Source of the DNA: Cyanidioschyzon merolae
Lineage: Eukaryota
Assembly: GCA_000091205.1 (NCBI GenBank)
Contig: AP006488.2
Direction: 5' to 3' (one strand)
DNA: 64,000 bases
The translations under genes and the position numbers were made by a program. The notes beneath the pieces were generated by a model. It saw nothing but the letters and a program-made list of their open reading frames with translations. It was not told the DNA's origin and searched no databases. The stretch's first letter is position 1. Each line of letters begins with the position of its first letter. Shown in pieces: positions 39,994 to 60,800 of the stretch.

Positions 39994-42285
39994 ATGCAGC
40001 CTCTTCCTGTTTATTTAAGTATCGACGTGGGCACTGGGAGCGCACGAGCTGCGCTCTTCGACGAACTGGGACGCTGTCTAGCTAGGGCAGATGCGCCGTT
40101 TCCCACTCATAACCCTAAACCAGACTATTTTGAACAGTCGACTGTTCACATCCTTAAAGCGGTTGCCAGCTCCACACGCCAGGTACTGGAAACACTGAGT
40201 CAAAACGCAACGACGAGCGTCAGCACCGCTGGTACCGTACTGACACGCTCTCTGCAGACGCTGGGCGCGTCGGAGAGAGCAGAGCTAGGGCCTGCGGTAC
40301 CCCAGCCAACAGGCCATGGAAACGAGCAGCGACCTGCCTGGCAACTGTGTGGCGTTGGTGTCGACGCAACCTGCTCTTTGGCGCTTGTCAGTGCTGAGCA
40401 AGCAGCATTCTTCAGGAACTGCTATAGCGACGAATGCGCTTCACCGGAGGGTCTGTGGTCATGTGTACCTGGCGGCGTCGCGCTGGACGTGGAACACAAT
40501 GACGACGATGGCGGAACGTTGCCCCAAGCCGTCTGGGATATTATCGTATGGATGGACCATCGTGCCGAAGCAGAGGCGGCTGAAATGAACGCTGACACTG
40601 CCGAATGCACCCAGGATGTGCTTCGCTTCTACGGGGGATCCCTGTCTCCGGAGAGCGAGCCCCCGAAGCTGCTCTGGTTGCTGCGTCATCGACCGGAGCT
40701 GTTCCTGCGATGCACTGCCGTCATGGACCTCTCTGACTTTATTGTATTTGCGCTAACTGGGAACTTGGAGGCACGCGGACTCTGTCCCCTGGCTGCAAAG
40801 TGGGCATATCGCACCGATGAAATGCGGTGGGATACGAGCTTCTATCAACGATGGGGACTCGGGGACCTGTTTACGCGCGGATGCTTCGGTCGAGAGATTC
40901 GTTTACCGGGGCAGCGAGTCCACGGCATCGGGGATTCGGTTGGACTTTCAAAGATTGCAGCGTTTCTGTTGTTTGGCTCCCCGACATCGGACGTGACATC
41001 CCGAGCCTCCAACTGCACGTTAACCGCAAGAGGTGAGCCCGTCGATGGAGGTGCTGCAGCGCAGCTCGTCTGGGACTATCGCGAAGTTGTCGTTGCTGCC
41101 GGCATGGTCGATGCACATGCGGGTGCCGTGGGAGCCTACAGTATGCGTATTCCAGCAACAGGAGAACGATCTGACTGGTGGATCCAGCCGACTGGGATGA
41201 AGGAGGCACCATCGGGCCTCAGTGCGGGAACAAGGCCGATGTCCGCTGCCTGTACTCCAACGGGTCACGCCTGTACAACTGCAAACACGCAAGCGATGCA
41301 CGTTCTAGATGAGCACGGCCTCAACATTACCCAGTGCGCAACGGGATCCATTGTAGACGACCGCTCAAACATATCAAATGAAACCGCACCGAGCCTCATG
41401 ACTATCGATCTGACAGGGGCACGCGTTACTTCAGTGGGTACAGCTGCTGCTGCTGCTGCCGCTGCTGCCATGGTGCCTTTCGACTGGTGTCAACGCATTG
41501 CCTTGATTGCTGGCACGTCAACGTGTCACATGGTCTGCTCGCGGGAACCTGTTTTCGTTCGTGGTGTATGGGGTCCGCACCGCACCGCGGTGCTCCCAGA
41601 CCTGTGGCTCAACGAGGGAGGCCAGAGCGTCACCGGTCGATTACTCGATTATCTGGTCGAGAGTCATGCGCATGCTCTCGGCTTCGGAAACACACCGCTC
41701 GCCGTGGTCCACGCTCGACTCTGTCAACTTGGCAAGCACCAGATGAAAAGAGCAGCGGGCATCCATGTGTATCCGGATTTCCATGGGAATCGTTCCTTGC
41801 TCGCGGATCCACGCATGAGTGGAGCGATTGTCGGGCTACGTCTGGACACCTTCGCCAACGAGGAGGCTTTTGCTGCGCTTTACCTGGCCACCGTGCAATC
41901 CCTGGGCTACGGAACGCGTCAAATCATTGAGCGTCTTAACGAGGCAGGTCACGACATTCGCGTGATCCTGCTCTGTGGTGGCATGCTGAAGAACGAGCTG
42001 TTTGTGCAATCACTTGCAGACACGTGTCAGCTGCCGGTAGTATTCGCAGAGCGCCCTTTCGACGTCATGCTCCTGGGTGGCGCTATCTGCGCGCGCTGTG
42101 CGCACCTGGAAGGCGATCTTTTGCAGGTAATAGAAGCCATGAACGGCGGGCCTGATCAGCTTTTTTATCGACTGGATCCGGATCCGAAATGGCGGATGTA
42201 TCACGAAGCGAAATATCGAATTTTTCAGCGAATGCAACAAGAGCAGATAGCGTATCGAGCAGCGATGATGAATGTTTGGACATGA
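39994..42285 (+). CDS. FGGY: FGGY-family carbohydrate kinase (FGGY/D-ribulokinase-like) with low-complexity insertions
   Basis: N-terminal LSIDVGTGSARAALFDELG; C-terminal domain LIAGTSTCHMVCSREPVFVRGVWGPHRTAVLPDLWLNEGGQSVTGRLLDYL, VYPDFHGNRSLLADPRMSGAIVGLRLD and ILLCGGMLKNELFVQSLADTCQLPV. It is colinear with metazoan FGGY and includes an Ala9 run (GCT)n at ~41440-41470. Confidence 0.85.
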   Translation: MQPLPVYLSIDVGTGSARAALFDELGRCLARADAPFPTHNPKPDYFEQSTVHILKAVASSTRQVLETLSQNATTSVSTAGTVLTRSLQTLGASERAELGPAVPQPTGHGNEQRPAWQLCGVGVDATCSLALVSAEQAAFFRNCYSDECASPEGLWSCVPGGVALDVEHNDDDGGTLPQAVWDIIVWMDHRAEAEAAEMNADTAECTQDVLRFYGGSLSPESEPPKLLWLLRHRPELFLRCTAVMDLSDFIVFALTGNLEARGLCPLAAKWAYRTDEMRWDTSFYQRWGLGDLFTRGCFGREIRLPGQRVHGIGDSVGLSKIAAFLLFGSPTSDVTSRASNCTLTARGEPVDGGAAAQLVWDYREVVVAAGMVDAHAGAVGAYSMRIPATGERSDWWIQPTGMKEAPSGLSAGTRPMSAACTPTGHACTTANTQAMHVLDEHGLNITQCATGSIVDDRSNISNETAPSLMTIDLTGARVTSVGTAAAAAAAAAMVPFDWCQRIALIAGTSTCHMVCSREPVFVRGVWGPHRTAVLPDLWLNEGGQSVTGRLLDYLVESHAHALGFGNTPLAVVHARLCQLGKHQMKRAAGIHVYPDFHGNRSLLADPRMSGAIVGLRLDTFANEEAFAALYLATVQSLGYGTRQIIERLNEAGHDIRVILLCGGMLKNELFVQSLADTCQLPVVFAERPFDVMLLGGAICARCAHLEGDLLQVIEAMNGGPDQLFYRLDPDPKWRMYHEAKYRIFQRMQQEQIAYRAAMMNVWT

Positions 42286-44576
42286 AACGAATGCTGGATG
42301 CGGTGCTAGATCTGGAAGCCGCAGTGTGCGTTGCGGTCGCGAAGCGCCCCATGGAGTGCTTCAAACCGCTGTGAACACCGAAATCAATCTGAAGAGCGAA
42401 GTAGATACCCGGGAGGGTCGAGTTCTGGAGACGTTGGGCTGGGCTGGGCTGGGCTGGGCCTTGTCCGACCAGGGAACCGGCACACGAATCTTCGGGGTGC
42501 CCGTTTGAGCTGGGCAAAGACAAAGCACGGGGGTTTGCTGGAAACAGCTGCAGTGTGCCCCGATAATGAGACCATCAAACCTCCTATATACACCGATGTC
42601 AGATTGGTACGGAACAGGTCCAACGACGTGACTCGGGCGTAAACGCGAATATTTGGATCGCTTCCCACGATGATCAAAACTAGCCTTTGCGGTGTTTTTT
42701 TGGTGACTGTTGTCCTTTGAACCCTGATCTCGGACTTTAAATATGCTGGTCTGTCCTGGTCCTGCAGCTCCATTGTCCGCAGTCGGAGGATGGCGGTTGC
42801 TGTCAGCAGGTCCCTGTGTCGCAGCTCGGGCTGTTGTTGACGCACTGCATGCAATCCAGGAAGTTGTGCTCTACGCCTCGCTTGCCACTTTCATTTTTGT
42901 TTTCCATAGAGCGTCTGTGCGACCTTCGCAGCGGCGACGCTGGATTGCTGTCAGGGTTCGCCATAGATCGACCATACCTTCTTCTCCGAAACGTATCCTG
43001 TGGCGCGTAAAGGCTTGCTTCATCGATCAGTACATAGCCGTGACTGGTGCGGAATGCTCCGGTGGATTATAACTTTTGTTTCCGCGCTCGATGCCGTCCC
43101 GTACGACCACGGGCTTCCTCAGGGTAACACGCTCGGAGACGCCTTTGAATAAAGCACACACACGAGGACGCTGCTCCATTGGATAAAGCGTTTATGGTAT
43201 GCGATATGGTCGACGATCAAACAATACGGAAAGGACACACGAGCCTCGAGATCAAGTCGACGAATACCGATTTGTCGACGCTTCATTCGTGCTAAAGCGT
43301 GATGCATTCTGCAATGAAAGCGACCGCTGCAATGATTCAAATCCGAATACAAGACCCCCTTTCTATTCAATGAGAAACGTCGGGAGACATTTCGGTAGCG
43401 TATACCATGATATGCTCGCTGATGCTGTGGAACCTCGATCGTCGAAGTGCCACGAATAGAGGATGATTTGTCTTCTGGACGGTATCCATTACGATCCATT
43501 GGTCTCAAAAGTTCGGTGAAGTCTCGGCACGAGCTTGTGGGCAAGTCGCCCTGGGACGAAGTCGAGACGATCCCTTCGTCAGCTCAGCGACGCGAATCGC
43601 TGTGCATACGAGCTGCCTCGAAATAGTTAGATCTAGATCTTGAAGATTGCATAACCTGAGCATGCTGAACCCATGGACAGGAGAAGCGTGGAGGCTCGCG
43701 CTCCAGCATCGCATGAGGCTATCGGTTATTTTACGAAGCGGTGCTCGAGGTCGTCGCGTATGATCTTGATGCAGGCGACGCCACATATTCCAGCGGCAAG
43801 GCGCCGAAGAAACCGCTCCGATCAGATTGCAGAGCATCCTCCAGCAACTCATGAATTAGTAAGCGTTTTTTTACTGCACTTTGCATTTTGAGGCTGTGTA
43901 ACTGAAATAAAACTTCGAAATAATCGCAAAACAAGTGCAAGACGAGCAATGCAGGGCTCTGCTTGCATCTGAGTTGGGTCCAGCGCTGCATGCTCGGACA
44001 CGAGGCTTGCGCTGGGTACGCATCGGTAGACGGCGTCGCCTTTATTTGTGACCCAGGCAACACAGAGCTGCTGGGTCGCCATCAAGGGAACGCGAGATCG
44101 CCCTATGCGTAACATTGCTTCGGTTCTCTTGAAGTCTGCGGTGTCTCGAGTGGATGACTCTGGGTTTGAGCAGATGCGGCAGCGGCGCCTGCTGGCCGCC
44201 TCGATCCGTACCAGACGGATTCGTGGTAACCAGTGCGTCTCAGTGTACCTGGACCATTCGAATGACTTTTACGTGGTCGATACAGAATCATTAAATCTAT
44301 CCTTAGATAAAGGCACTTTATACGAACTGGATCGAGCACAACATCGCAGACTACAGCCAGTGCAAACGTCACGTTTGGTGCTGCGGCAACTCCCGGGAGC
44401 GAGCCCGTCAATGCGCATAGCTTCGGGGTCCTGAAGCTATTGGCGCATCACCCGCAAACCTTGTGCAACGATTTCCCGACTTGTCATCGAACAGAGGGAT
44501 TCACGATCGATCGGTGTCTCGGGATGTGTTCGCGCTCGCTGCATGCCCTCGCGTCCGTCGAGCGCACACCTAGGCG

Positions 44577-45131
44577 CTAGTGATGCTCGGATGCCACATG
44601 CTCCTCATACGCCTTCGCATCCATCAAATCCTGAAGCTCATCGGCATTGCTCACCCGTACTTTGATCATCCAGCCAGCATCATGCGGGTCTTTGTTCACC
44701 TGGGCGGGGTCCTCACTCAGCACCGCGTTGACTTCAACCACCTCGCCGCTCACAGGGGAATACACGTCGCTCGCAGCCTTGACAGACTCCACGGCCCCGA
44801 ACGTCGCTCCTTTCTCAAGCTGCGAGCCGATTGCTGGAAGATCCACGAAAACGATATCACCGAGCTGGCTTGCAGCGTGACTCGTGATGCCAACCGTCCC
44901 GGTGCCGTTCTCAACCTTGACCCATTCGTGGGACTTCATGTACTTCCGATCCGCTGGAAACGTCCCAGCTGCACTCGCCAACAATCGCCTACCTCGATCG
45001 TGTGCCGCCTGTGGAGCCATTTGCACGAGCTCTCCAGCGGGCCCCGCGACCCGACGGAACAGACTCGGCGTCCGTTGCCGCAATGCACTGGGCCAGCTCG
45101 CGGTCATACAACGCACAAGTACTCGGTTCAT
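44577..45131 (-). CDS. GCSH: glycine cleavage system H protein (lipoyl carrier), with mitochondrial-presequence-like N-terminus
   Basis: KYMKSHEWVKVENGTGTVGITSHAASQLGDIVFVDLPAIGSQLEKGATFGAVESVKAASDVYSPVSGEVVEVN...DAGWMIKV contains the lipoyl-lysine motif ESVKA. The N-terminus MNRVLVRCMTASWPSALRQRTPSLFRRVAG is basic and amphipathic. Confidence 0.85.
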   Translation of the reverse strand: MNRVLVRCMTASWPSALRQRTPSLFRRVAGPAGELVQMAPQAAHDRGRRLLASAAGTFPADRKYMKSHEWVKVENGTGTVGITSHAASQLGDIVFVDLPAIGSQLEKGATFGAVESVKAASDVYSPVSGEVVEVNAVLSEDPAQVNKDPHDAGWMIKVRVSNADELQDLMDAKAYEEHVASEHH

Positions 45132-45753
45132 GATTTGAATTCAAGGACGCCTACAATAGGAAACCAATAGAAAACGAAGCAGACACACAACAGACTCTTG
45201 GTCAAGTAAGTATGCAGCACCGTTGTACACGCTGCGGACCAGGTGCTTCAAAAGTTTGTCGCCTAAGCTGTCAGCTGCTCCCCGCGAGGCACGCAAGGTG
45301 TAGAGCGCACAGGCGGCGTGCTCGCGCATCGATCCGAAGCGGCGGCGGGTATCGGGCCAGTACGCCGCCAGCGCAACCGCCGGATCGCCAGCGCTGGCGA
45401 TCCGGCGACGCGTTCCAGGCGCGTCCGCTGCAGCAAATGGCGCCTCATCAAACGCTCGGTCTGATACGAGGGTGGTGTCGGTAGCTGGTCGACCACACCT
45501 ACGATACGATCCGAAGACAGGGGCGTTTATGGAGTGCTCGCTTGATCGAACGCTGGTGCTTTGAATGCGAGGCGCACGTGCTCCATGGAGCAACAGGATT
45601 CGTGGCAAGCGCAGGCATCGCCCGCAACGACCAGGTAAAAACTGCAATAGAGATGGAAGCAGCGGTTGCGGGCACGCGTACGCCGGACACGCACATAAAC
45701 GTATGATGAGGCATGCATGGAGGCTACAATGCGCGATCCACGCCAGCAACGGG

Positions 45754-45872
45754 GGCATCAGATCGCGATCCGGTGATGCGTGCACTGCACGGCCCCGGAC
45801 GGCATGCACATGCACGACCATTCGACACATGACGACAACCGGCATCAGATCGCGATCCGGTGATGCGTGCAC
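45754..45872. repeat. exact 32-bp direct repeat (ggcatcagatcgcgatccggtgatgcgtgcac) x2, 87 bp apart
   Basis: Identical 32-mers at 45754-45785 and 45841-45872. They lie inside a low-complexity minus-strand ORF (45141..45923) that I consider spurious. Confidence 0.8.
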
Positions 45873-46051
45873 AGCATCATTGCACTGTGCGCCTTGCGAC
45901 GATTTACGTCGTAACAGCGGCAACGTCCGGCACGATCCATCGCATCGTGCACGGCAAGCGATGACGTCTTGCGAAACAAATCAACACCCAACGTTGTCGG
46001 TATCGCTCGGTACTGCCGAAACATGCTCGGTTGTCAGATCCTCAATCGCGT

Positions 46052-48373
46052 TCAAGTGATACGGCCAAAGGCCGTCGCCGTGATGAACAGTCCGTCGCTC
46101 CAGTCCTCGCGAATCTTGCACAAGGGCCCATGACTCGTGCGCGTGCAGCGTTGCTCTTCACCAGACGCGTGTCCACGACTCATCACATAGGCCGATATAT
46201 CTGATCCGCAAGCAACTGCCGTCAGCATGTAGCCCTCGTCCCAGCGGTGATGAATGCTCTCACTGGGATACCCAAATTCGAGTTCGACCACCTGCTCCTT
46301 GAACGCTGTGCCTCGGCTCATGACGACGAGCCACTGCTCGGCAGAGGGCGGCCCCTGGACACAGAGGCTGGTGATGGCATAGCCGTTCGTCCACTTGTCG
46401 GCACACCACTTGGCCGGGAAGGTCGAGCTCACGATATAGCTCTGTTGCTTGTAGCGTTTGTTGCGATTCATGGTCGATGCGACAATCCCCCAACTTGTGT
46501 GATTCGCTGAGCAAGCAGTGATGTAGAAGCCCTCGTCCCATTTGCTGCGAATCCAATCTCGAGGCACTTCATTGCCGGGGCAATAGTGCATGGCTTGCTC
46601 CACCAGCACGGGATCTCTGGCGTTGAGGACGCTGGTCCACATCCCGCCGTCGAAGCACAACACGCTGATGCGCATGCCCTGAGCCCATTTGCGCTCCACC
46701 TCGCGCACCAGATTCTTGTACGAGGTATGACTCGTGTACACCTGGCTCGCTGGGGCACATGACGAGGCGTTGTTCGCTGAGGTGCTTATGATTACCCACT
46801 GATGTGTTTTCGTCGTTCGTGGTGCAATAATTTCAAAGCGTCCTCGTCGCATGCCCACGTCCTGGAGCGCCAAGGATAGCGCATGTTCAGCGAGCGCGCC
46901 ACCACGAATGCCCACGTCCGGCTCTGTGGAGCTCGCTCGCGAGACCGCTTGCGCCGTGTTCTGCAGCTCGGCCGCCGCACCCGGCGTTCGCGCTCGCTTT
47001 GGTGCCTGGGCAGATGCTTGCCCTGACATACCATTCCGCCGCTTACCACCGACCGTGCCCGGCACTGACGACTCCACAAGAAGAACTTCTGCTGCTCCTG
47101 CGCTGTTCTGCGAGACATCGCTGGCCAAGTTGATGATATTCGCACTCGGTGCGGCACTATCGACATCAACAGTCTCGGCGGCAGGGGTACGTGCCTGATA
47201 CGGGGGGACAAGCGGCACTCCCTCGGCCATGAGGCGCATTTGCTGATGAATCCAAACGATTCCCTGCTTGCAATCCAAAATCCGTGCCATGTACTCGTAG
47301 TCTGGCTGTTCAGCGAATTTCAGCTGCCGCACGTAGGCCAAAAAGTAGCGCAACTCATCCGGCACTGCTCGACAGATGTCATTAACTAGCATGCGTCCCT
47401 TGCTTTCGCAGACTTGCATATTCTTGTCGTCGCCGACAAAACCTTGCCACGGGAGCTGCCCTTTCAACAGATAAATCAGCATGTAAGCGAGTGATTCCAG
47501 ATCGTCTCTCCGAGACAGGTGGCGGCCGAGGTGCGCGTTCACCGACGCGTACCGCACCGTGCCGCTAAAGTGATCAATACGTTGACCGTATGGGACGTGC
47601 TTGCCCGTGGCGTCATCCTCGCGCCAACGGGTGGCGAGGCCCATGTCAATAATATAGAGAGGCACGTTGACGTCGATTTTCGCCGGCGTCACGCGAGCGT
47701 ACTTTGGGTCACTCACGGATGTCGTTCCATTGGCGCCCGTCCCGGAGGCATCGCGTGCGTCTATATTCACCTCTAGTAGCGCCAAGGGGTCCACGCACGA
47801 CCCCCCCGTATTCTGGCGACTTGACGTCTGGTTTTTCGGTTCGCGGTATTCGAGGAGGAAATTCTCGGGCTTCACATCCCCGTGAACATAACCGATGTCG
47901 TGGACTCGCTTGATCAACGCCAAACACTTGAGCGCGATCTGAGACACTTGTGGCCAGGTAAATCGTCGCGAAACTCGAGATTCAAGGGCCTTCTGGAGCG
48001 TAGGTCCCAACAGCTGCATAACACAGACAAAATATCGCCCGACATGTCCAGTGTAGTAGACAGTGGGAGCGCCGAGTCCCTGCATCCGCATCAGAACCTC
48101 CCACTCGCGATACGCAATCGTTCGGGAGCGATACTCCAGTTTCACCGCTACTGGCTCGCCTGTAAGCGCGTTGCGGCCCTTGTAAACGTCGCCAAAGTGG
48201 CCAGAGCCAAGAAAAACGTCCTTTTCCACGATGAAACCTTTGCCGCCAGTGCAAGGGCACGACTGCCCCACCACCGTTGGAACTGGATCCTTCGGCTCCG
48301 ACGCACTCGCTGCGGGTGTCGCACCGACCGCTGGCTCGACAGCGGCTGTGCGCCCTCCCACTGGGCCCCGCAT
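46052..48373 (-). CDS. casein kinase I (CK1)-family Ser/Thr protein kinase with long C-terminal extension carrying ~5 tandem ~48-aa W-x-x-G-[YF]-x-[IL]-T repeats
   Basis: Kinase domain: FLGSGHFGDVYKG...VAVKLE, HDIGYVHGDVKPENFLL, a large insert, then IDMGLATRW...GTVRYASVNAHLG and SRRDDLESLAYMLIYLLKGQLPW. C-terminal repeats: WAQGMRISVL..., WDEGFYITAC..., WTNGYAITSL..., WDEGYMLTAV..., WSDGLFITATAFG. Confidence 0.85.
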   Translation of the reverse strand: MRGPVGGRTAAVEPAVGATPAASASEPKDPVPTVVGQSCPCTGGKGFIVEKDVFLGSGHFGDVYKGRNALTGEPVAVKLEYRSRTIAYREWEVLMRMQGLGAPTVYYTGHVGRYFVCVMQLLGPTLQKALESRVSRRFTWPQVSQIALKCLALIKRVHDIGYVHGDVKPENFLLEYREPKNQTSSRQNTGGSCVDPLALLEVNIDARDASGTGANGTTSVSDPKYARVTPAKIDVNVPLYIIDMGLATRWREDDATGKHVPYGQRIDHFSGTVRYASVNAHLGRHLSRRDDLESLAYMLIYLLKGQLPWQGFVGDDKNMQVCESKGRMLVNDICRAVPDELRYFLAYVRQLKFAEQPDYEYMARILDCKQGIVWIHQQMRLMAEGVPLVPPYQARTPAAETVDVDSAAPSANIINLASDVSQNSAGAAEVLLVESSVPGTVGGKRRNGMSGQASAQAPKRARTPGAAAELQNTAQAVSRASSTEPDVGIRGGALAEHALSLALQDVGMRRGRFEIIAPRTTKTHQWVIISTSANNASSCAPASQVYTSHTSYKNLVREVERKWAQGMRISVLCFDGGMWTSVLNARDPVLVEQAMHYCPGNEVPRDWIRSKWDEGFYITACSANHTSWGIVASTMNRNKRYKQQSYIVSSTFPAKWCADKWTNGYAITSLCVQGPPSAEQWLVVMSRGTAFKEQVVELEFGYPSESIHHRWDEGYMLTAVACGSDISAYVMSRGHASGEEQRCTRTSHGPLCKIREDWSDGLFITATAFGRIT

Positions 48374-49439
48374 GGTGCCCGCTCACCCCTGGTACACAGC
48401 CACAGACACGCTTGCTTCAGCAGCTTCAAAAACCTCCTGGTATCCAAACACGCTCCGCTTCAACCCGACTCACGGCTTCTCTGAGCAAAATCTGTCGAGC
48501 GAACAATAGACAACTCAACCAAAACCACCACAGAGTCGCAGCCCAGAGTCTTTTGTAGACGTGACAAGTCGTCCGTGCGAACTGGCGCTGCCACTACCGC
48601 TGCGTCGCGCGAGGGTTTCCACTACAACCGACTCGTGCAACCTCGAAACAGCCTAAAAACGGAAACTGACCTCTATCGTTGGATACTGAGTATTCCTGCT
48701 TTCACGTCAAGTACTATAGCACCAAACAGGAACCTACTCGAAACGTGTATACCCGCTCATATGGTCCATGCGTTCAGGGTAGTCACGCGCTGAGCGTCTA
48801 TCGAACGCGCGCTGTCTCGAGGCGCTGTTCATACATCCCCGCGTGACGCGACCCTGCGGGCGCTGATGCGCAAGCGCGCGCTGCAATGGACATCGCTGCA
48901 TCAAGATCGATGGTGCAATCCTGATTCGATTGCGATGACAAAACGTTTCCATGGAGCAGGGATCCCTGGTTTCGGGAAGGATGGGTGGTGGCGTTCGGGA
49001 AAGCGTCCATCATGATGTTACCTCCAGGTTCCTTTTGGATATACTGGCCGTTTCGTATGGTCTATCGTTTGCCGAGTACTTGATGTGAGCGCTCGCCTCG
49101 GGGCTTGTATCGCTGGAGCAGATATATCATGGGGATAGAACGGCTTTGGCACGCCATTGAGGGCGTCGGATCGAGGAACGCTTCACCTGATACGTAGTCG
49201 GAGTATATGATCAATCTGCGAGCCTGCAAGCTGCGCTGGCAGACGGACTGCCTGCGGCAGTTTGACGCGATATACTAGGAGTCCACTGCGACCAGATCGA
49301 CGCCCAGATGGAGCCTAACTGCCCCTGATCCCAGAATGAATTGCGTTTTGCGGACGCATTGTTCAGGTCTCGCCACAGCACCTGCCACTGGAGGAAGCAT
49401 GAAGCACGAGCTTGGTAGATTCGTCCGTCTCGCGGGACC

Positions 49440-52140
49440 TTACGCCTAGAAGGTAAACTTTCGAAGATACGGAAACCTTTCCCCTTTGTAACGTTTATCG
49501 TAGATGGGGATAGAAATACATAAATATTTGCAGGTGAATCGTGAGTCTATGTTCCTTATTCTAAATAACGCGCTCGGTACGCGCATCCCAAATTTGGTAG
49601 TACGAAATACGACGCGAATGTCGCTGTTGAAGGGAAACGCGATCGAGACAACACGTTTTCTTTTTTGGGAGCATTCGATCTCGTACTCGCAGCGTGCACT
49701 GTTGGTGAGGGTCTTGTCCCATGGATGACAACGGCATTGCACGGCTAGATCTAGTGTGTTGTTCTACTGTAAAAGTCGGATTTCCTTTGAGGCCATAGCA
49801 AAGTCTAGTTTCCCAGTTCAATTGTGTTTCAAACCTCAAGTAAGAATATTCCATTGAATTTTCGCAGCATATAACAAATGCGTTCGAAGAGGGCTCTTTT
49901 TCAAAAGAAACTAAGAAAAAGGAAAGTTGTGAAAAAGCAACTGGACGATCCTTGAAGTCCAGGATCCTCGGCTGCCAGAAAAAAAAACGAAAAACAGTGC
50001 CGAGTCCAGAAGAAAAGGAAGAGAAGAGGACCGAAAGGGGGAGGCCCTGCGTCGAAGACGGCCAGAAAGACGACTGTACGACGAGACGGTGGTGAAAGCC
50101 TTTCTTCTTGGACATATCAAGGGGTCGTACAAGGAAAGGTTGCGAGACGCTATCGAAAAACGTGTCGATTCGTACACCAAGAGCACCATAAAGACGTCGT
50201 CAGGACTGATGCATTTGGTGAGAGAGATGTATCGCGACGTGACGCACATGGAAACGGTCGAGATTCCAGACGAGTTGTTCGACCAGACCTTTATTCGGCA
50301 CCTGATGCTTGGCACAGGGAAACGCGGAGGGGAAATGAGTTCGTGCATGCTCTCCACGGAAAACATCCCTTTTATAGCTTCGAGGGTACTCGATACAAGG
50401 CTGACCAGGATATTTACACATACGGGGCAATGAAGTACCTCACGAATCTGAAGAACCATTTGACAATGAACCTCGAACGTTTCATGATACGCTCCGTGTT
50501 TGCACTCTACCCGGGTCTGTCTCGCAATGGAAAATGGGCGATTATCAATGGCATCACGAAAGATCGTAAGCATGAAGATGAGACGGAGATCGTTGACAAG
50601 AAGTCGTCAAACGAGAGCACGAATGAAGCTTCTGTAATCCGTGCGCCTAGTAAAGAGTACCGCGCAGACCTGGGGCTGGCGAATCCAGCAGAAAAGATGT
50701 CAGAGTTGAAAAAACATATGGAAAAATACAATCGCCTCATCCTGCGGTATTTCTTGTTTCTGGACCGAGAGCTCGAATGCAAGGCAGATGTGAAGCTAAG
50801 TGAGGAAAACAATGAAGAGTCGGAGAGACGGACGGCTTTCCTAATGGGGAAGCGCGTCAACGTGGTTCCAATGTGCAACATCAAGTCACATTTTGTGACT
50901 ACCGACTCCAGAGTCCTTCATGGCATCATCAGGAAGATCAGTCTTGAGTTCAATGTTAGCAGGGAGGAGTTCACCGGCGAGAACCGGGAGCCGTACTGGA
51001 AGAATATCTTCGATTTCAAACGTCTCAAAGTGAGCAAGCAAAAGGTATTCACTTGGATGATCGAAACCGATGGAGTAGCCATGGACGTACACTATCGGCG
51101 CTTGAAGGCAGATCGTCCAGTTCCGCCCTCTGCTGCGCCCTCGACGAGCCATGCAGAAAAGAAGGAGGCGGATCCTGCGATGCAGGAGGTGCAGGATAAC
51201 GACTTTGTCGTGGGTGCGGACCCTGGGAATACGAATATCATAACCATCGCAGCACCCAAGCCTGGGGAAGATGATACTGACGGTGACTTACGTCAGAGAG
51301 ACAAGCGTCTTTTGAGGTTCTCGACAGCGAGATACTATCGAGAATCCGGTATAATGAATGCAAGGAAGAAAATTGATACGTGGAATGCAGGAATGAAGGA
51401 TCACCTGGAAGCTTTGAGTGAGGTGACGAGCCGAGGAGCGGGCTTACAAGCTTTTCGGAAACTCATGGAAATACGCGTTGCTCATTGGGAGGCGCTGTGG
51501 GAGGAGTATACAAATCCCCGGTGGGCTCGTCTGCGAATGAATCTATATTGTGGGAAGCAGCGGGCGTTCGCGGACTTTTTCAATCAGTTGAGTGCCCTCA
51601 AAGAGGATGAAACTCAGAGGCTGGAAGTAGCTTATGGGGCAGGGCGCTGGAAGAACCGAAAAAAGGGACTACGCCAGCTCCAACGACAACAACGTACAAA
51701 GAGTGTGCACGGCGTTTCGCTACGATACCTGTAGATGAGTTTCGAACGTCCTACACACACCATGAACTGGGGTGTACACTTCAAAGGGTCGAGATGGAAA
51801 AGTGCCAGCGGAGCGCTGAAGACTTAAAAAGCACGGACCACTGACAGAAGAGCATATGGAATAGAGGGCAAAAGTTCGTGGACTACTCGCATTCGTAAGT
51901 ACAACCATTTGCAAAAAACGTATGGAATTTCTGAACCGGGACTTGAACGCCGCGATCAATATCAGGAGACGTGCGGTGATAGAACAGAGACCTCCACAGT
52001 CGACAAGAGCGAAAAGCGTTGGCTGGCGTGATCATTTCGTTCATGAGAAAAATCAACGGCGCGCTCGAGCGACTCTCCAGCCACGCCCGAGATATTCTCG
52101 GTCCGTCGTTACGCCCGAGATATTCTCGGTCCGTAGCTCC
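49440..52140 (+). mobile_element. Fanzor/TnpB-like (eukaryotic OMEGA-type RuvC nuclease) element, most intact copy (copy C), in a lower-GC island
   Basis: Composition changes abruptly to AT-richer at ~49440. The nuclease ORF runs 50089-~52000. The 3' end holds a ggctgg...ccagcc stem, the 10-bp palindrome cgctcgagcg (52061-52070), a 24-bp unit acgcccgagatattctcggtccgt duplicated at 52083-52106 and 52111-52134, and (acga)4. Boundaries are approximate. Confidence 0.5.
50089..52000 (+). CDS. Fanzor/TnpB-like RuvC nuclease ORF (RuvC-I, RuvC-II/TS..C zinc-finger and RuvC-III motifs present); reading frame interrupted at ~50340-50430, ~51720 and ~51840 (frameshifts or short introns), so possibly a pseudogene
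   Basis: Main frame 50343..51734 contains [19 protein letters not shown] (RuvC-I, the GIDLGI..lA pattern) and [10 protein letters not shown]. The adjacent frame at ~51709-51840 reads [21 protein letters not shown]...C (the TnpB vd.yTSq.C zinc-finger lead-in with E). The frame at 51922 reads [19 protein letters not shown] (RuvC-III, D-RD.NAA.NI). An N-terminal piece at 50089..50433 lies in a third frame. Track starts 50089 and 50343 are GTG. Confidence 0.55.
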
Positions 52141-52321
52141 GCCAACTCAAACGAACGAACGAACGAAAGCTCTTCTATCGGGTGCGAAAATGCGCTCCGA
52201 CTCAGTGCGTCTTGTCAGTACAACTTTTCCGAGTCTAGTAGATATTCACAGGAATATTCATGACGCAGTTACAGTGCAAGCTGAGCTCTTGAGAGCTGCT
52301 TCGCCACGCGCAACTCCAGTG

Positions 52322-54154
52322 ATGGCTGGTGCGCGCTCCCCAATCGCTAAAGCCTCACCGCGTCCTCGCACGGTCGTGTACTTTGGCACGTACACGCGTG
52401 TGCTACACCACAGTCGTGGGACCGGAAAAGGTGTGTTCGGGTTTTGGTTGGACAACGACACAGGCTACCTGGCTCCTCTTAAAACTGATTCCCCGGAGGA
52501 GGCTGACGAGTCTGGACTCGTCGTCCGTGCTGACGGGCTACTGTGTCCAGCGTATTTCTGTCGCGATCGTGGCCCTTCAGGCGAGTACCTCTGGGCAGTC
52601 AATGAAACGTCCAAGTTCGACTATGCTCGCCCGGATATTTTCGGGTCGGTGACCCTGTTCCGCTGGCTGCGGCGCGAGGGCGGCCTGCTAGAGCGGCTCG
52701 GAGAGTTTGCGACCGCGGGACACGGCGCTTGCCATCCGTGGACGGATCACCTTGGACGGTTTCTTCTTATAGCAAACTACTGGAGTGGATCTGTTGTGGT
52801 CTTCCATATCGAGCGTGAGGCAGTGGAGCGTGAGCATACGACGAGTCCACGTCTGCACCTGGTGCAGCATGTGCAGTTTATATCCCCAGTCGATGCAGTC
52901 GACGAGGAAACGAAACCGTGCGCAGCGTCGCTCCTAGGTCTCACTGAAGCGATGCAACAGGCACAGAAAGCAAAATCAAGTCTCTTGGGTTTCCGCCGCG
53001 ATCGGCAGGATGGACCACACTCACACCAGATCGTGGTTGACCCCACCGAGCGCTTCCTCTATGTCCCAGATCTAGGAACGGACCGCATCTATCAATTTAT
53101 CCTCCGGTTTGATGAGGTAGCTTCCGAGCTGGCACACGGAAAAGACCAAGAGTCTCTGCGGTGCGTACCGCACGCTGCGTTATCGGGAAGCGATGCGCAG
53201 TTGTGTACAGAGGCACAGGATGCTGTCGCTGCGCATGTACGGGGCACATCGCCTGGTCCTGATGAGCAGAACGGTCGCCCCATTCAAGCGCAGCAGCAGC
53301 GTTTCATCACTCCGGCTGGTGTGGTGTCTGACTACCCGTTCCAAGCGCCCCAGGGTGGCGTACTGTACCAGACCGAGTTCGCACGAGCCACCGGGACGGC
53401 GTGCTGTCTCCTGCCGCATCCCTCTGCGGCGTTCGTTTCCGTGCCGCCGAGCGGTGCGGGACCTCGCCACATGTTGTTGCATCCATCTGGCCGTTGGGCG
53501 CTCGTTCTCTGTGAACTGAACGCGACCCTGCTGTGCTACGCCTGGGACGGACCAACGCCAGTGGAGACGGTGCTTGGGCATCAGACTGCCAGCGGGCTGC
53601 TGTCGAGCACGCCTGCGTCCATGTTGGACTTGCTCCCGGCCCACTATCGTCAGAGGTACTCGCCGGAAATACTGCACCAGTACAACATCTCGTCGGCGTT
53701 GCGTCTGCATCCATTGAGAACGGATCGGCTCTATGCGAGCAACCGTGGACACGACTCAGTTGCGGTTATCGAGTTCTCCGAACAGAATGGCTGTATGCGG
53801 ATTCTGCAGTGGGTTCCGTCTGGTGGACGCACCCCACGTGATATCGCCCTGGATCCCCGCGCAGAGTTCCTCTACGTGGCTAACCAAGATTCAGATCGAG
53901 TAGCGGTGTTCAAGCTGGATCCCGATACTGGCTTGGTTTTGTCGACTGGCCACCATGCGCCATGTCATGAACAAGCTGCAGATGCTGGTCAGAGTGCCGA
54001 CTTGGGCGCTGCACCAAATCCCGAACAAGATGGCATGTCCGCGGACTCAATGGATGATCTAACGCTTGCGGGCTGCGAACAACGGTGCACACCTTACCAA
54101 ACGCTCTCGATCCGCGAGCCTTGCACGGTATTCGTCGAGGAGGTACCCCTCTAG
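52322..54154 (+). CDS. lactonase, 7-bladed beta-propeller family (6-phosphogluconolactonase / muconate lactonising-enzyme-like)
   Basis: TVVYFGTYT...GKGVFGFWLD near the N-terminus, with repeated propeller blades: HPSGRWALVLCELNATLLCYAWD, LHPLRTDRLYASNRGHDSVAVIEF and PRDIALDPRAEFLYVANQDSDRVAVFKLDPDTGLV. The open frame extends upstream to 52019 (TTG) across the Fanzor 3' end. I chose the ATG at 52322 from family N-terminus position; ATG 52190 is an alternative. Confidence 0.55.
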   Translation: MAGARSPIAKASPRPRTVVYFGTYTRVLHHSRGTGKGVFGFWLDNDTGYLAPLKTDSPEEADESGLVVRADGLLCPAYFCRDRGPSGEYLWAVNETSKFDYARPDIFGSVTLFRWLRREGGLLERLGEFATAGHGACHPWTDHLGRFLLIANYWSGSVVVFHIEREAVEREHTTSPRLHLVQHVQFISPVDAVDEETKPCAASLLGLTEAMQQAQKAKSSLLGFRRDRQDGPHSHQIVVDPTERFLYVPDLGTDRIYQFILRFDEVASELAHGKDQESLRCVPHAALSGSDAQLCTEAQDAVAAHVRGTSPGPDEQNGRPIQAQQQRFITPAGVVSDYPFQAPQGGVLYQTEFARATGTACCLLPHPSAAFVSVPPSGAGPRHMLLHPSGRWALVLCELNATLLCYAWDGPTPVETVLGHQTASGLLSSTPASMLDLLPAHYRQRYSPEILHQYNISSALRLHPLRTDRLYASNRGHDSVAVIEFSEQNGCMRILQWVPSGGRTPRDIALDPRAEFLYVANQDSDRVAVFKLDPDTGLVLSTGHHAPCHEQAADAGQSADLGAAPNPEQDGMSADSMDDLTLAGCEQRCTPYQTLSIREPCTVFVEEVPL

Positions 54155-54854: not shown

Positions 54855-56822
54855 TCATTCCGTGGTGGCTATTTCGCTGATCGACTGCATAGCCAGCTCA
54901 TCTACAGCGCGTTCAAGGAGCGCGTCCAGAAGCAGCGTGCTCCCGTTGATACCGGCAAGCGCAAGTTCCCGGGCAGCCTCGTGATAGAGCTGAGCAGCTC
55001 TCTGCACGCTGCCCCGCACATGTTCCACATAGCCAAGCGCTGACAAGGTATCCGCCCGTGCCAGCGCATCGGACCCAGCGCAGCCCGGGGCAAGTCGAAC
55101 AGCGTGTCCGACCAGTAGCGCTTCTTCGAGCGCTTCGGCAGCTAGGTCTATCGCCTGCAGTCGAATGAGCGCATGTCCAAGATTACTGCAAATGGTTGCC
55201 AGCAGACTACGCGCTTCTTGGCAGCCATAAAACGTGCTCGTGGGATCGCACCAGACGGATGTTGCCGAGGGAGCGTTGGTATCCGAGCTTGTGCTTTGGC
55301 TGTTCTCGATGCCGCTCTGTTGTAGCACAGGTCGTTGGACAGCCGCTTCAGCCTGTTTCTCTGGAGCAAACCCTCCACCACCATCGGAGATGCGATATCT
55401 TTGGTCTAGGCCTAGGCGCATCGACCATGCTTTCTTGTACGCTTGGAGTGGACGTGCTGCCTTTTGAAAATAAGCGACTGCCTCGGCGTACTCCCCGTCC
55501 CGATAGCATAGCACACCGAGTTCATTCCACGGGCGGGAACGCTCGATGCCGTTTGCCAGTGCGTCCTCGTCTGCGTCCGAGTCGGCACTCGAGGTCAATA
55601 CAGGCGCTACTACTACTGCTGCTGCTGCTGCTGCCCGTTCAAAAAAGTTGCGCGCAATTGCCAGATGATTCTGCCGAGCAAACTCCATCCCGACATGAAG
55701 CAGCGGTGTCGGGTCATTCGGTCGGAGACGCATTGCAGTCCGATATGCCGCAAGCGCCTGTTCGCTGTCGTCAACAGCGGCAAAGGCGTGGCCATACGCA
55801 ACCCATACGTATGCAAGATTGCTGTTTAAGAGCGTCGCCTTTTGAAAGTACGCGCGTGATGCATCATATTTCCCCGATGCGAAGTAGTACATGCCAACAG
55901 CGTACCAGGACTCTGCCGCTCGCGGAAATTCCTGCACGAGCTGATGCGCGTACCGGAAGAGGGTGATAAGGTCCTGGTGGTGAGCCAGCAGCGCAACAAA
56001 CAAGGGAAAGCTCCGCTTCAGTTCCAGTTCCTTTCGTTCAGCGACCAAAAATGAGACCAGTCTGTACGCTTCTTGGCAGAAACCGAGGCGCCAGAACCGG
56101 GTAGCGACCATGGTCAAGAAGAAGCAAGGTACCAGGGACCAACGTTTCCGCCAGTCATCGAACCGAAGATCGTTCGCAAGCATGAGATATACCTTCGAAG
56201 GGGAACTATCCTTGGGAAACGGTGTTTCGAATGGCCATAGCGCCTGGAGTGCGATCTGGTCAACAGAGAGTGCCTTGTGCTGAGCACCGGACGACGTGCT
56301 CGGGGGTAAAGCGCCCAGCGGCACTGACGCTACCACCGCGTTGCTATAGAAGAGTCGTTCAAGCGCTTCCACACAGCTTTCGTCAGCCTGCAGTGCTGCA
56401 ATATAGCATTCGCTTGCTTTTTGAGGGTTCTCCAGGGCTTCATACGCATCGCCCACGAGAACGTAATAGGCGGCGATGAGCGGATTCGCGTTCCCGCGTG
56501 CAGCGTCGCGCTCTCCTGTCGTGGATGGGAGGCCACGCTCCTCGAAAATCGCGACCTGGTCCTCGTATAGCCTCAGTTCCGCCAGACATCGAGCTTCGAT
56601 CAAGCGAATAAAAACAGTCTCTTCCAAAGGCAGCCTTGTCCGATAGCGCTCGAGTCGGTGTAGCGCACGCCGCGCCTCACCCGCTGAAAGCAGCGCCTGC
56701 GCGAGCACCTCTACTGCAGCGGGGTTTTCTGGTTCACCTGCAAGCAAACGCTCAGCGTTGTATGCTGCACTTTCGAATCGACCAAGACGCAAGTCTTCTC
56801 GTGCGCGGAGAATATCGCTCAT
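54855..56822 (-). CDS. CDC16: anaphase-promoting complex subunit Cdc16/APC6-like TPR protein
   Basis: The TPR-rich block SWYAVGMYYFASGKYDASRAYFQKATLLNSNLAYVWVAYGHAFAAVDDSEQALAAYRTAMRLRPNDPTPLLHVGMEFARQNHLAIARNFFERA is colinear with the APC6 core (SWFAVGCYY..G....AR.Y..KAT.L....AWIAYGHSFA...E.DQAMAAY.TA..L....P.LYIG.EY). The first ATG is 56820-22 (track start is a TTG). Confidence 0.7.
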   Translation of the reverse strand: MSDILRAREDLRLGRFESAAYNAERLLAGEPENPAAVEVLAQALLSAGEARRALHRLERYRTRLPLEETVFIRLIEARCLAELRLYEDQVAIFEERGLPSTTGERDAARGNANPLIAAYYVLVGDAYEALENPQKASECYIAALQADESCVEALERLFYSNAVVASVPLGALPPSTSSGAQHKALSVDQIALQALWPFETPFPKDSSPSKVYLMLANDLRFDDWRKRWSLVPCFFLTMVATRFWRLGFCQEAYRLVSFLVAERKELELKRSFPLFVALLAHHQDLITLFRYAHQLVQEFPRAAESWYAVGMYYFASGKYDASRAYFQKATLLNSNLAYVWVAYGHAFAAVDDSEQALAAYRTAMRLRPNDPTPLLHVGMEFARQNHLAIARNFFERAAAAAAVVVAPVLTSSADSDADEDALANGIERSRPWNELGVLCYRDGEYAEAVAYFQKAARPLQAYKKAWSMRLGLDQRYRISDGGGGFAPEKQAEAAVQRPVLQQSGIENSQSTSSDTNAPSATSVWCDPTSTFYGCQEARSLLATICSNLGHALIRLQAIDLAAEALEEALLVGHAVRLAPGCAGSDALARADTLSALGYVEHVRGSVQRAAQLYHEAARELALAGINGSTLLLDALLERAVDELAMQSISEIATTE

Positions 56823-57828
56823 CAACGAGCGGGCTGCTCAGCTTCCGTGCGAGTCCTCCAGCGAAAGCGAACAGCCTCTTCGCAAAATACCTGCCACTGC
56901 GTCGCGGCGCACGTGTCCACTGCGGGAGCGCCCGCATCGCTGCGACGCGTTCACGAAGCCTCTGTTCGGGTACCTCAGTGCACAAGGTGCTCCACGCAAG
57001 TGCCTGGGACTCTATGCTGGCTATTGGAAGCACGTGTCTGCTTAGGAGAATCTAGTTTGCGTTATGCATCCTGCTCGTCATGAGAAACGCTGCCAATAGC
57101 CGACAATTGCGTCTCTGGGGGCATCACGGTTTTGTTATGCATGCCGCTTATCATGAGAAGAAAAGCCACTCGTCCGTGACCCAGTATCCAGAAACCGCGC
57201 TGTGCTTGTCCGCCGTGCAAATCCTGCATGCGCTGCATCCCGTGTCTTCGAACTGCACCCCATCAGGGGGCATGAAATCCTTCGCGTCGCTCTTTTTCTC
57301 AGAACCGGCAAAGACCGACCGATTTCGCGTGCATATACCGTGAACCTGGTGCATACGCATCTCATCGTCAAATGATAGCTTCCACCAGCACCACCAGCAT
57401 CACCAACGCTGGAAATACCTTCTATGAACAGCATCGACGGGCGAGGCGGTGCGCCTGGGAGCAGCGCATCGCAGCAATTGCCGCCATAGGCGCCGCCTCT
57501 CCAGCGTCCGTTGCATCACACAGTGCCGTGGCGGCGACTGCCGCTGCTGCTGCTCTTCGGCGAGAAACGTCCCGATGCAATCGCGCTGGCGCACGCATAC
57601 ACGCATCGATGGATGTGCACGCATGCGCCTGGACACGTGTGCATGGCTGGGCAGCGCACGCATCCGTTTCTGCGCGCCGCCTTGGTAGTCTAATTGGGTT
57701 AAAGTGTCTGTTTTGCGGCTCGGGAGGCCTTTCTGTACACCAGCAACCTCTTGAGCGTTGTTTGTTGGCTTGTTGGGTAAAGAGGTACTTCACCGGAGAA
57801 TAGTTTGTGGAGGTTGCTGCGTTGAAGC

Positions 57829-60800
57829 ATGGCGGCGGCACCTGTTGTTTTCGAGGAGCTGTTCACGCTGCCCTCGGTGGGCATCAGCCCGACGCATATC
57901 AGCTTCAGCAACGTCACCATGGAGTCAGACCGTGTCATCTGCGTTCGGGAGACCTCTGACCAGGGAAATAAGCTGGCGATTATAGATGTTACAAAGCCCG
58001 ACCAGATCGTGCGGCGACCGATAACCGCGGACTCGGCAATAATGAACCCCGAGAGCCGCATCATTGCCCTGAGAGCAGGTGCGCAGATCCAGTTATTCGA
58101 CATCACATCTAAGACGCGTATCAAGTCATACCTGTTGTCAGAGGGCGATATTGTGTTTTGGAAATGGCTCTCTGGGCGCACCTTGGGGATCGTTACTGCG
58201 AACGCGGTGTACAGCTGGTCGATTGACGCTTCGAGCACCGCGCCGCCTGCAAAAGTATTCGATCGACACCCAGCGCTGGCCGCCTGCCAAGTTATTAACT
58301 TAGTTGCTGGTGTAGGTGAACGCTGGTTAGCTCTGGTTGGGATCCGCGCCGACGACACCGCTCCCGGTGGTGTGCTGGGCAAGATCCAGCTGTATGCTGT
58401 GGATCGCGGTGTGAGTCAGATTCTCGATGGCTATGCAGCAGGCTTCTGTGATCGCTACCGGATTGATTCTCAGGATGTTACGGGTACGCATCTGTTCGCG
58501 TTCGCGAGCAAGACCAAATTCCACGTGGTGGAGGTCGCTCAGGATAGGAAGCCAGATGGTGCTCCGCGCTTCGAGAAACGCATCACGAATATCGTATACG
58601 CACCTGGCATGGATAACGATTTTCCCGTGGCATTGCAGGTATCGAGCAAACTGTCGGTGGCGTATCTGCTGACCAAGTACGGCTACATCCATGCGTTTGA
58701 TTTGGAATCGGGCAAGTTGATCTACGCGAATCGCATTAGTGAATCTCCTGTTTTTGTTAGCACATCACACAGAGAGACAGGCGGATTAATAGGAATCAAC
58801 CGACGGGGGCAGGTTCTTGTTTTTGCAATCGACCCATCTCTGGTCGTTGAGTACATCCTGAGGGAGACAAACGACCTGGATCTGGCCATCAAGTTCGCGG
58901 CACGGAATGCGCTGCCCGGTGCAGATGATCTTTTCGCGCAACAATTTCGCCTCCTCTTTGATTCGGGAAAATACCGTGAGGCGGCTCAGGTCGTTGCGGA
59001 ATCGCCTGCTGGGAATCTGCGCACGCCTCAAACCATGGAGATGTTCAAGGCGGCGACACCACAACCGAATGTACCATCGCCTCTCCTTTTGTACTTGCAG
59101 GTGCTCTTGGAGCACGGCAACCTCAACAATGTTGAATCGATCGAACTTGGTCGGCAGGTCGTCGCATATTCCCGGCTGGGTTTGCTTGAGCGATGGATCA
59201 AGGAGAACCGAATCGAATGCTCTGAGGAGCTTGGCGATCTAGTAAGAGCTGCCAACGATCATCGCTTGGCTCTGGCGATTTACCTGAAAGCCGGTGCGCA
59301 TCGCAAGGTGTTTGATGGTCTCATTCAACTCGGCGAATACAAGCGAGCCGCGGAATACGCGAAACGGAATGGTATTCCAGTGGACGCGCTTTCCCTGATC
59401 CAGAGCGCTTTGGCAACCAGCCCAAAGGTCGCGCTCGAGGTCGCGGAGTCGCTGGCAACAGATACCGCAGACCACGCGGCGGTAGCGGACCTGTTTCTGC
59501 AACGCGGGATGGTGCAGGAAGCGACCTCATATCTTTTGGATGTTATGCGCGAGGATCGCCCGGAGCAAGGTGACTTGCAGACCAAAGTCCTTGAGATCAA
59601 CTTGACCTTGGGTGCTCCGCAGGTAGCTGATGCGATACTTGCTCAGGAGATGTATACACATTTTGATAAGCAGCGGATTGCTGTGCTTTGCGAGCGGGCG
59701 GGACTTGCTCAGCGCGCTTTGCAGCTGTACACTCGTCTTAGCGATGTCAAAAGGATACTGGTTACATTGTCGCATGCAATTCAACCGGAGTACTTTCTCT
59801 CAATTTTCGCGAATCTTTCTCCCGACGACAGCCTCGAGCTGCTCGATGAACTATTGACCAACGACTTGCGCGGCAACATACAGCGGGTGGTGCAGGTTGC
59901 CATCCGCTACTCAGATGCTCTGGGACCATCACGTCTGATTGACCTCTTCGAGAAGCACCAGTGCTATGAAGGAATGTATCTGTACCTCGGGGCAATTTTG
60001 GCAACCAGCAAGTCGCCCTATGTCGTTGCCAAATACATCGAAGCAGCCTGTCGAACGCAGCAGTGGTCTGAGGCGGAGCGCGTCACCCGCGAATCGGATC
60101 TGTACAATCCCGAGCAAGTGAAGGAATTGCTCTTTGAATTGAGACCCAAAGACCCTCGTCCGATCATCAATGTGTGCGAAAAAGGCGGTGATGTCGAAGA
60201 CATGGTTCGGTACTTTGTGAAGCAGAATCAGCTTGAAATCGTGAAAGGCTATGTTCAGCGAATCAACCCCGGCAATACGCCAGCCGTCGTGGCTGCGCTA
60301 CTCGACTCTGACAGCTCTTCGGTTGACGACGTCTATATCAAGTCGCTGCTGATGAGCATCAAATCACTGGTGCCTATCGAGGCCGTCACGCAGGTGCTCG
60401 AAGAACGTCAGAAGCTGAAACTGATGCTGCAGTTGCTGGAAGCACTGGTTGCCGAGGGCAGCAAAGACAGAGCGGTTCATACCGCGTTGGCCAAGGTCTA
60501 CGTCGACGCCAACATCAACCCGGAGCATTTCCTCGAGACGAACGAGTTTTATGATGCTCGAATTGTGGGCAACTTTTGTGAACGGCGTGATCCGCTTCTC
60601 GCGTTCATTGCGTACGCGCACGGTGCATGTGATGACGATGTGCTGCGCGTAACAAGCGATCACGGCCTCTGGCGGGAGCAGGCACGCTACGTTATCGAGC
60701 GGATGAACCCGGAACTCTGGGCACGCGTCCTCGAGGAGAGCAACCCCAATCGGAAGACCCTGCTCACGCAGGTAATCGGGTCTGCCCTGATGGAGAATCG

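Follow-up and report, generated by a model that had tools for sequence, protein, structure and literature searches.

What do tandem repeats do on a casein kinase 1 (CK1) of a red alga? The question is raised by a minus-strand gene in a 64,000-nucleotide stretch of Cyanidioschyzon merolae (contig AP006488.2, assembly GCA_000091205.1), hereafter the window. An initial annotation, made from the sequence alone, had described positions 46052-46900 as a CK1-family kinase with an unusual repeated tail that it did not recognise as a standard CK1 accessory domain. These positions are the 3' end (amino acids ~492-773 plus the stop codon) of one uninterrupted minus-strand open reading frame (ORF). A Pfam scan of the encoded 773-residue protein revealed Pkinase followed by PF24289 (DUF7477) across residues 525-771, and the DUF7477 match (E=1.2e-50) was unbroken, spanned profile positions 21-265 out of 268 and scored 172.6 bits where the cut-off is 27. 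Far from being unusual, the tail thus belongs to a catalogued repeat family, the accessory domain that defines the plant-type CK1 clade. Architecture, domain family and kinase clade are all already known, and the tail is the hallmark of the clade.

Kinase clade and repeats of the protein

A homologue search of the 773-residue protein against 5.8 billion proteins returned 1399 homologues. Among the 120 best of those listed, almost every one carried PF24289, together with PF00069 where the N-terminus was complete. Their names include 'casein kinase 1-like protein HD16', 'MUT9-related serine/threonine protein kinase' and 'CK1-CK1-Pl family'. An identical copy occurs in JGI metagenomes on four contigs, adjoining the same glycine-cleavage H protein (GCV-H) gene as in the window, and the homologue P0289 is 80% identical. 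The closest named matches in local BLASTP came from Cyanidiococcus yangmingshanensis (P0004, 78% identity) and Cyanidium caldarium (P0003, 67% identity), followed in rank by Galdieria, Porphyridium purpureum ('Casein kinase 1-like protein HD16'), Agarophyton and Rhodochaete; after the red algae came green algae, among them a Coccomyxa 'MUT9-related serine/threonine protein kinase', and then land plants. Because Pkinase is combined with DUF7477, the homologues bear these names and motifs are common with the green lineage, we assign the ORF to the MUT9/MLK/PPK/EL1-Hd16 clade, and judging from these comparisons it is almost certainly the red-algal orthologue of this 'type II', or plant-type, CK1.

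The CK1 assignment of the initial annotation stood up in comparisons with solved structures. The kinase domain of the window protein alone found CK1 chains as its best matches in the PDB (phmmer, E~5e-53), and a full-length family profile matched solved CK1 structures at E~1e-80, a search that the kinase domain dominates and that is uninformative about the tail. The catalytic motifs LGSGHFG (residue 55), VAVK (75), HGDVKPENF (164), DMGLA (243) and SRRDDLESL (287) align with those of family members, and the kinase domain has predicted local distance difference test (pLDDT) values mostly above 85 in an AlphaFold2 model of the full-length protein. MUT9/MLK subtype marks are also present, namely HGD in place of HRD, DMG in place of DFG, and an insert of ~60 residues. 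In a 50-sequence alignment and in alignment A6, the HGD loop, D(L/M)G and LPWQG(F/Y)xG(D/E)xK..VC form invariant columns, with DMG in the window kinase versus DLG in other members. The clade signatures were compared within alignments of family members, and scores of the kinase domain for type I versus type II were not decisive, as BLAST and phmmer bit scores are not commensurable. Within alignment A6 the insert is found in the window protein, P0289 and P0003, all Cyanidiophyceae, and not in Galdieria, Porphyridium, green algae or rice; its residues 185-228 have pLDDT below 50.

The repeats had been placed right after the catalytic domain. They do lie C-terminal to the kinase, but a linker of about 125 residues intervenes, of which the first ~95 (residues 395-488) are predicted to be disordered (pLDDT <50), while a short predicted helix (residues 495-504) stands just before the tail. 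Two basic clusters in the linker, KRR(444) and KRAR(459) (nt 46976-47050), resemble a nuclear localisation signal (NLS) and align with the family consensus 'VGxKRxR...KKxR'; an NLS has been reported in MLKs (review PMC7084540).

As the initial annotation had claimed, there are about five divergent tandem repeats of ~49 residues, and all five of the strings that it quoted are present in the protein. The motif W-x-x-G occurs exactly five times in the whole protein, at residues 563, 612, 661, 711 and 758 (spacing 49, 49, 50 and 47), and every copy is in the tail. Against 1000 shuffles, 7 of the 10 unit pairs had similarity at z>3.5, with units 2-4 reaching z=6.4-8.9, and hhalign among the five units, each represented by a 19-sequence family alignment, gave 78-99% probability for all pairs (E 1e-5 to 3e-17). 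On the strength of these two tests, the repeats are real and homologous, and are neither chance nor an assembly artefact. Their consensus is Q..(Y/V)..S..FP..WI..KW..G(F/Y).(I/V)T......W.VVMS.G. A strand at the N-terminal end of the tail carries W-x-[IV]-[IV]-x-S, the element that ends every other unit, and its W526 is invariant.

The clade comprises MUT9p of Chlamydomonas, MLK1-4 (also PPK1-4 or AEL) of Arabidopsis and EL1-Hd16 of rice, all of which have the same CK1 kinase plus DUF7477/PPKC over their full length. Kinase domains of these members are 39-41% identical to that of the window protein and their tails ~33-37%, and the window tail aligns end to end with those of the rice, Coccomyxa and Closterium members. 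Shared features are the HGD loop, D(L/M)G, the basic NLS-like linker motif and the invariant Trp, Gln and Pro in every repeat. The window protein differs from green-lineage members by the ~60-residue disordered kinase insert and a much longer linker, and it retains W-x-x-G in unit 1, where plant proteins have lost the Trp. Red-algal tails have W-x-x-G in all five units, while in the green lineage unit 1 is without the Trp (K-G-N-E-D-G-L-F-I-S) and unit 5 reads W-x-K-N-L-Y. Since the motif is kept throughout, the red-algal proteins appear in alignments A2 and A6 to display the ancestral repeat more regularly than the green-lineage ones do.

Predicted fold and bacterial relatives of the tail

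With a 54-sequence alignment, AlphaFold2 returned a model of the tail with a pLDDT of 87.8 and a predicted template modelling score (pTM) of 0.86, in which helix-strand-strand-strand recurs five times. N-terminal strands (residues 523-532 and 544-546) complete the unit begun by the C-terminal helix and strand, resulting in a closed ring, and the structural repeat is strand-helix-strand-strand (EHEE). The tail is confidently predicted to be a closed five-repeat alpha/beta barrel. Fold searches with this model found a single solved structural relative, the alpha/beta barrel of PDB 7TPU, a Fusarium polyglycine hydrolase (Fvan-cmp) in whose N-domain five 44-residue EHEE repeats form a barrel, reported as a new fold (PMC9912923); the modelled tail likewise has five EHEE repeats, of ~44-50 residues, that close into a barrel. 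The authors of that structure speculate that the N-domain, of unknown function, serves protein-protein interaction, and their paper does not mention CK1 or MLK, although the AlphaFold neighbours listed in its supplement include a few Ser/Thr kinases of actinobacteria (PMC9912923). According to a 2026 preprint, the same fold occurs in Chondrus cuticle proteins. Sequence identity between the 7TPU N-domain and the tail is 9-11%. Moreover, 7TPU is a secreted protein in which the N-domain precedes the catalytic domain and the repeats are barely similar to each other, whereas the window repeats are recognisably homologous. Profiles of the eukaryotic (A2) and bacterial (A5) domains gave no significant sequence link to any solved structure in the PDB, and the matches to the carbohydrate-binding module (CBM) of xylanase D (1e5b, E=0.34) and to PD-1 (E=0.92) were regarded as chance.

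A propeller or a beta-sandwich array, the arrangements suggested at the outset, does not agree with this model, which has one helix and three strands per unit, and the fold searches point instead to the 7TPU barrel. Nor does the tail model have the four antiparallel strands per blade and the all-beta make-up of beta-propellers. A new kind of propeller or sandwich array might still be argued from the period of ~49 residues and the Trp motifs, which are superficially propeller-like, and from the closure of the ring by an N-terminal strand, a 'velcro'-like feature, but the confident tail model contradicts it and leaves it scarcely credible.

We further searched 1.84 billion cluster representatives with the tail using HMMER, and obtained 898 proteins at E<=1e-3, many of which start with signal peptides or Hanks-type kinase domains. 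In a Pfam scan of 89 of 148 representatives, at least 330 residues each, DUF7477 was matched in 89/89. Its partners were Pkinase in 23 of the 89 proteins, caspase (Peptidase_C14) in 16, TPR in 3, Astacin and Trypsin-like in 2 each, and FGE-sulfatase, TIR and Reprolysin in 1 each; an S41/PDZ protease fused to DUF7477 was also seen. Bacterial hosts include Bacteroidota, Verrucomicrobiota, Desulfobacterota and others, where the domain is found on receptor Ser/Thr kinases and on secreted proteins (caspase, S41, trypsin, astacin). Named examples are a 'caspase family protein' of Bacteroidales/Tenuifilaceae, an S41 peptidase of Desulfococcaceae and a 'DUF7477 domain-containing protein' of Chitinophagales, and a degenerate DNA pattern for W(A/V)VVMSKGTG(F/Y) located six loci in bacterial metagenome-assembled genomes (MAGs) of Bacteroidota, Aureispira and Verrucomicrobiales.

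The bacterial domains have the same signature as the window tail, Q / FP..WI..KW..GY.IT / W.VVMS, and hhalign between bacterial and CK1-attached DUF7477 gave 100% probability over 218 columns (E=2e-50); in terms of sequence the two are unambiguously homologous. The bacterial domains differ in their 46-residue, more regular period, in their position behind a signal peptide or a transmembrane (TM) helix, and in that the attached kinase is a Hanks-type serine/threonine kinase, not CK1. Ten bacterial-type kinase fusions (P0136, P0164, P0165, P0170, P0172, P0174, P0186, P0198, P0228 and P0258) all have exactly one predicted TM helix between the kinase and the repeats, which have a period of 46 residues. 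Their predicted topology is that of receptor kinases with DUF7477 as the extracytoplasmic input module.

Secreted bacterial proteins in which five DUF7477 repeats are fused to caspase, S41/PDZ or FGE-sulfatase (P0209, P0250, P0140, P0151, P0183 and P0229), and one representative with a TIR domain, have the look of bacterial signalling or conflict systems. In the protein encoded at one locus of an Aureispira MAG (L007, 3220-5232, plus strand), a signal peptide and five repeats are followed by a caspase-like C-terminus, the last recognised by eye only from His/Cys-type motifs. Among eukaryotes, kinase plus DUF7477 was also seen in a transcript of the non-archaeplastid protist Ancoracysta twista (P0132, EukProt) and in MMETSP transcripts of marine eukaryotes (P0126/P0295). 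The kinase-DUF7477 fusion may be older or wider than Archaeplastida, or these transcripts may come from prey or contaminants.

Possible role of the barrel

Functional evidence on the eukaryotic domain comes from Arabidopsis, where the conserved C-terminus of PPK1-4 was given the name 'PPKC domain' by Liu et al. 2017. In their yeast two-hybrid assays PPKC by itself was enough for blue-light-dependent binding of CRY2, and full-length PPKs bound CRY2 less strongly than it did (PMC5437284). A 2020 review describes the C-terminus of MLKs as a highly conserved non-catalytic region of ~280 residues that lacks the autoinhibitory region of animal CK1, and records phosphorylation of H3T3/H2A by MUT9p and MLKs (PMC7084540). 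Because the partner domains of DUF7477 act mostly on proteins, with the protease of polyglycine hydrolase joining them by fold, and Arabidopsis PPKC binds CRY2, we lean, by a modest margin of belief, towards the barrel being a docking or exosite module for protein partners or substrates. The barrel would bind nuclear partners and hold them near a CK1 domain that has little specificity of its own. If Chlamydomonas MUT9p and Arabidopsis PPKs are a guide, likely clients in the alga would be histones H3/H2A and/or proteins of the cryptochrome-photolyase family; plant substrates such as phytochrome and PIF3 may not exist in a red alga. The earlier suggestion of a substrate- or ligand-binding module agrees with the binding of CRY2 by PPKC, while for the present protein we infer docking from its relatives. 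As a joint account, orthology with the MUT9/MLK/PPK/EL1-Hd16 kinases together with a docking barrel is the best explanation and, in our judgement, a probable one.

Barrel and kinase domain may, in addition, be packed together, so that partner binding is coupled to catalysis. The full-length AlphaFold2 model has a pTM of 0.77 although 165 of its 773 residues have pLDDT below 50. If domains of ~290 and ~250 residues were placed independently of each other, pTM would be expected not to exceed about 0.4-0.5, and the higher value suggests that AlphaFold packs the barrel on the kinase. Such packing would be in keeping with the finding that full-length PPKs bind CRY2 less strongly than PPKC does.

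Several observations weigh against a docking barrel of this kind. Neither the eukaryotic profile (A2) nor the bacterial one (A5) detected 7TPU at E<=10 when run with hmmsearch against the sequences of the PDB, and we therefore claim the likeness at fold level only. For PIF3 binding, the kinase domain of PPK1 alone equals the full-length protein (Ni et al. 2017, PMC5437280); the PIF3 interaction thus needs only the kinase domain, and the tail is no universal substrate adaptor. In the literature we found neither a structure of the PPKC domain nor a study of a red-algal member, and the packing of barrel on kinase is read off one score, the pTM. Finally, bacterial DUF7477 is extracytoplasmic, with the TM helix in 10/10 kinase fusions and signal peptides on many other proteins, and sensing of a ligand or of the cell wall fits this at least as well as docking does.

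The last point leads to a different role, in which the barrel is a sensor of a small molecule, glycan or polymer that regulates the kinase allosterically; the bacterial domain would be the input domain of receptor kinases and secreted proteases, and the ligand in the alga would be nuclear or cytosolic. A single TM helix between kinase and repeats recalls PASTA-type sensor kinases, conserved Trp, Gln and Tyr abound in the repeat, as they often do in sugar-binding sites, and the contact between kinase and barrel hinted at by the full-length pTM is what allostery needs. However, the one functional datum on the eukaryotic domain concerns binding to another protein, CRY2, the sole match to a CBM was the insignificant one to xylanase D, and CK1 kinases are generally held to be constitutively active (review PMC7084540). 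We consider a ligand sensor unlikely. Even less probable, and in our view improbable altogether, is that the tail acts intramolecularly as an autoinhibitory or regulatory domain, masking the active site or the substrate groove until phosphorylation or partner binding. Packing of the barrel on the kinase and the stronger CRY2 binding of isolated PPKC would be consistent with masking, and C-terminal truncation activates animal CK1 (review PMC7084540). Yet the animal tails are disordered, variable and autophosphorylated, whereas DUF7477 is folded, highly conserved and present on many non-kinase enzymes; MLKs have no inhibitory autophosphorylation region (review PMC7084540), and PPK2 and PPK4, made as full-length recombinant proteins, show kinase activity in vitro (PMC10115779).

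The C-terminal regions of CK1 delta, CK1 epsilon and Hrr25 take the same position after the kinase as DUF7477 does, and are possibly regulatory. Those of CK1 delta/epsilon are variable, mostly disordered and autoinhibitory, Hrr25 has a different central domain, and neither has homology to DUF7477. A disordered, variable and autophosphorylated tail of the CK1 delta/epsilon type was rejected for the window protein, the tail of which is confidently predicted to be folded and is conserved.

Returning to the docking module, a broader version of it is conceivable, though doubtful at present: an ancient, mainly bacterial recognition barrel, extracytoplasmic in bacteria and employed there by receptor Ser/Thr kinases and secreted proteases, would have been captured once by CK1 before the red/green split, and would be packed as an exosite that gates a constitutive CK1 through partner binding.

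The locus and its bearing on the kinase family

The features of the gene and its neighbours are collected in the table below. The window has ordinary nuclear gene content with long intron-free ORFs. A trypanosomatid kinase, a reading prompted by base composition and the intronless ORF, was rejected, as the best matches are Cyanidiophyceae and other red algae and the gene lies in a eukaryotic nuclear setting with clathrin heavy chain, APC3 and GCV-H.

Table. Features of the kinase gene and of neighbouring genes; positions are those of the window
Feature	Position	Strand	Residues	Description or basis
Complete ORF, MUT9/MLK/PPK-type casein kinase 1	46052-48373	-	773 + stop	ORF list; Pfam Pkinase + DUF7477
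CK1-type catalytic domain	47204-48241	-	~45-390	Motifs intact; red/green homologue alignment, motifs, phmmer, pLDDT
Insert of ~60 residues between catalytic loop and DMG	47660-47848	-	176-238	Predicted disordered; alignment A6, pLDDT
Low-complexity linker	46820-47191	-	395-518	pLDDT; basic clusters
C-terminal repeat domain (DUF7477, 'PPKC')	46055-46819	-	519-773	Predicted closed five-fold alpha/beta barrel
N-terminal closing strand	46778-46807	-	523-532	THQWVIISTS; strand E24-33 of tail model
Repeat unit 1	46601-46747	-	543-591	WAQGMRIS...MWTSVLN
Repeat unit 2	46451-46600	-	592-641	WDEGFYIT...WGIVAS
Repeat unit 3	46301-46450	-	642-691	WTNGYAIT...WLVVMS
Repeat unit 4	46157-46300	-	692-739	WDEGYMLT...AYVMS
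Repeat unit 5, truncated	46055-46156	-	740-773	WSDGLFIT...GRIT; completed by N-terminal closing strand
FGGY carbohydrate kinase	39994-42285			Large internal insertion (N- and C-domains ~425 residues apart)
Glycine-cleavage H protein (GCV-H)	44577-45131
Lactonase-type seven-bladed propeller protein	52019-54154
APC3/Cdc27-like TPR protein	54855-56825
Clathrin heavy chain	57829-63009

In the gap that separates the GCV-H gene from the kinase gene, at the 3' end of the latter, ARAGORN called a 94-nucleotide tRNA-Cys(GCA) at 45339-45432 on the plus strand, which Rfam did not confirm, with no tRNA at the gathering threshold in 43500-50500. Possibly the call is spurious, given the GC-rich DNA; alternatively, this may be a tRNA gene that contains an intron or is unusual in another way, such as have been reported for Cyanidioschyzon.

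The feature flagged at this locus is a domain that was already catalogued, in a kinase family that was already known, and what is new here leaves that basic verdict unchanged. Red algae have been said to lack 'type II' (MLK-type) CKI genes, a type thought to have arisen in green algae (PMC8140429). This is contradicted by the full-length proteins combining the kinase with DUF7477 that we found in seven red-algal lineages including the window, from Cyanidiophyceae, Galdieria, Porphyridium, Agarophyton and Rhodochaete (homologues P0003, P0004, P0005, P0011, P0022 and P0040). By these sequences red algae carry full-length type II CK1, and some of the proteins are already labelled HD16 in databases. 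In the literature searched we found no paper that uses the term 'DUF7477', and no account of a 7TPU fold for PPKC/DUF7477, of homology to a bacterial extracytoplasmic module or of a red-algal type II CK1. Three points are modestly new, namely the red-algal type II CK1, the link to 7TPU by fold, and the variety of architectures in bacteria.

In plants, the MLK/PPK/Hd16 kinases control cryptochrome and phytochrome signalling, the circadian clock, abscisic acid and gibberellin responses, flowering time and H3T3 phosphorylation. Their C-terminal domain now has a concrete predicted fold, a 7TPU-like five-fold alpha/beta barrel, and the fusion of kinase and barrel is already present in red algae. 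If a single capture before the red/green split is true, the fusion would be earlier than the literature states and, given the Ancoracysta transcript, possibly wider than Archaeplastida; fold equivalence with 7TPU would then also predict the same exosite role for the N-domain of the polyglycine hydrolase. To learn what the barrel binds, a genetically tractable, nearly intron-free alga of the Cyanidioschyzon type that has one gene of this kind would offer a simple system.

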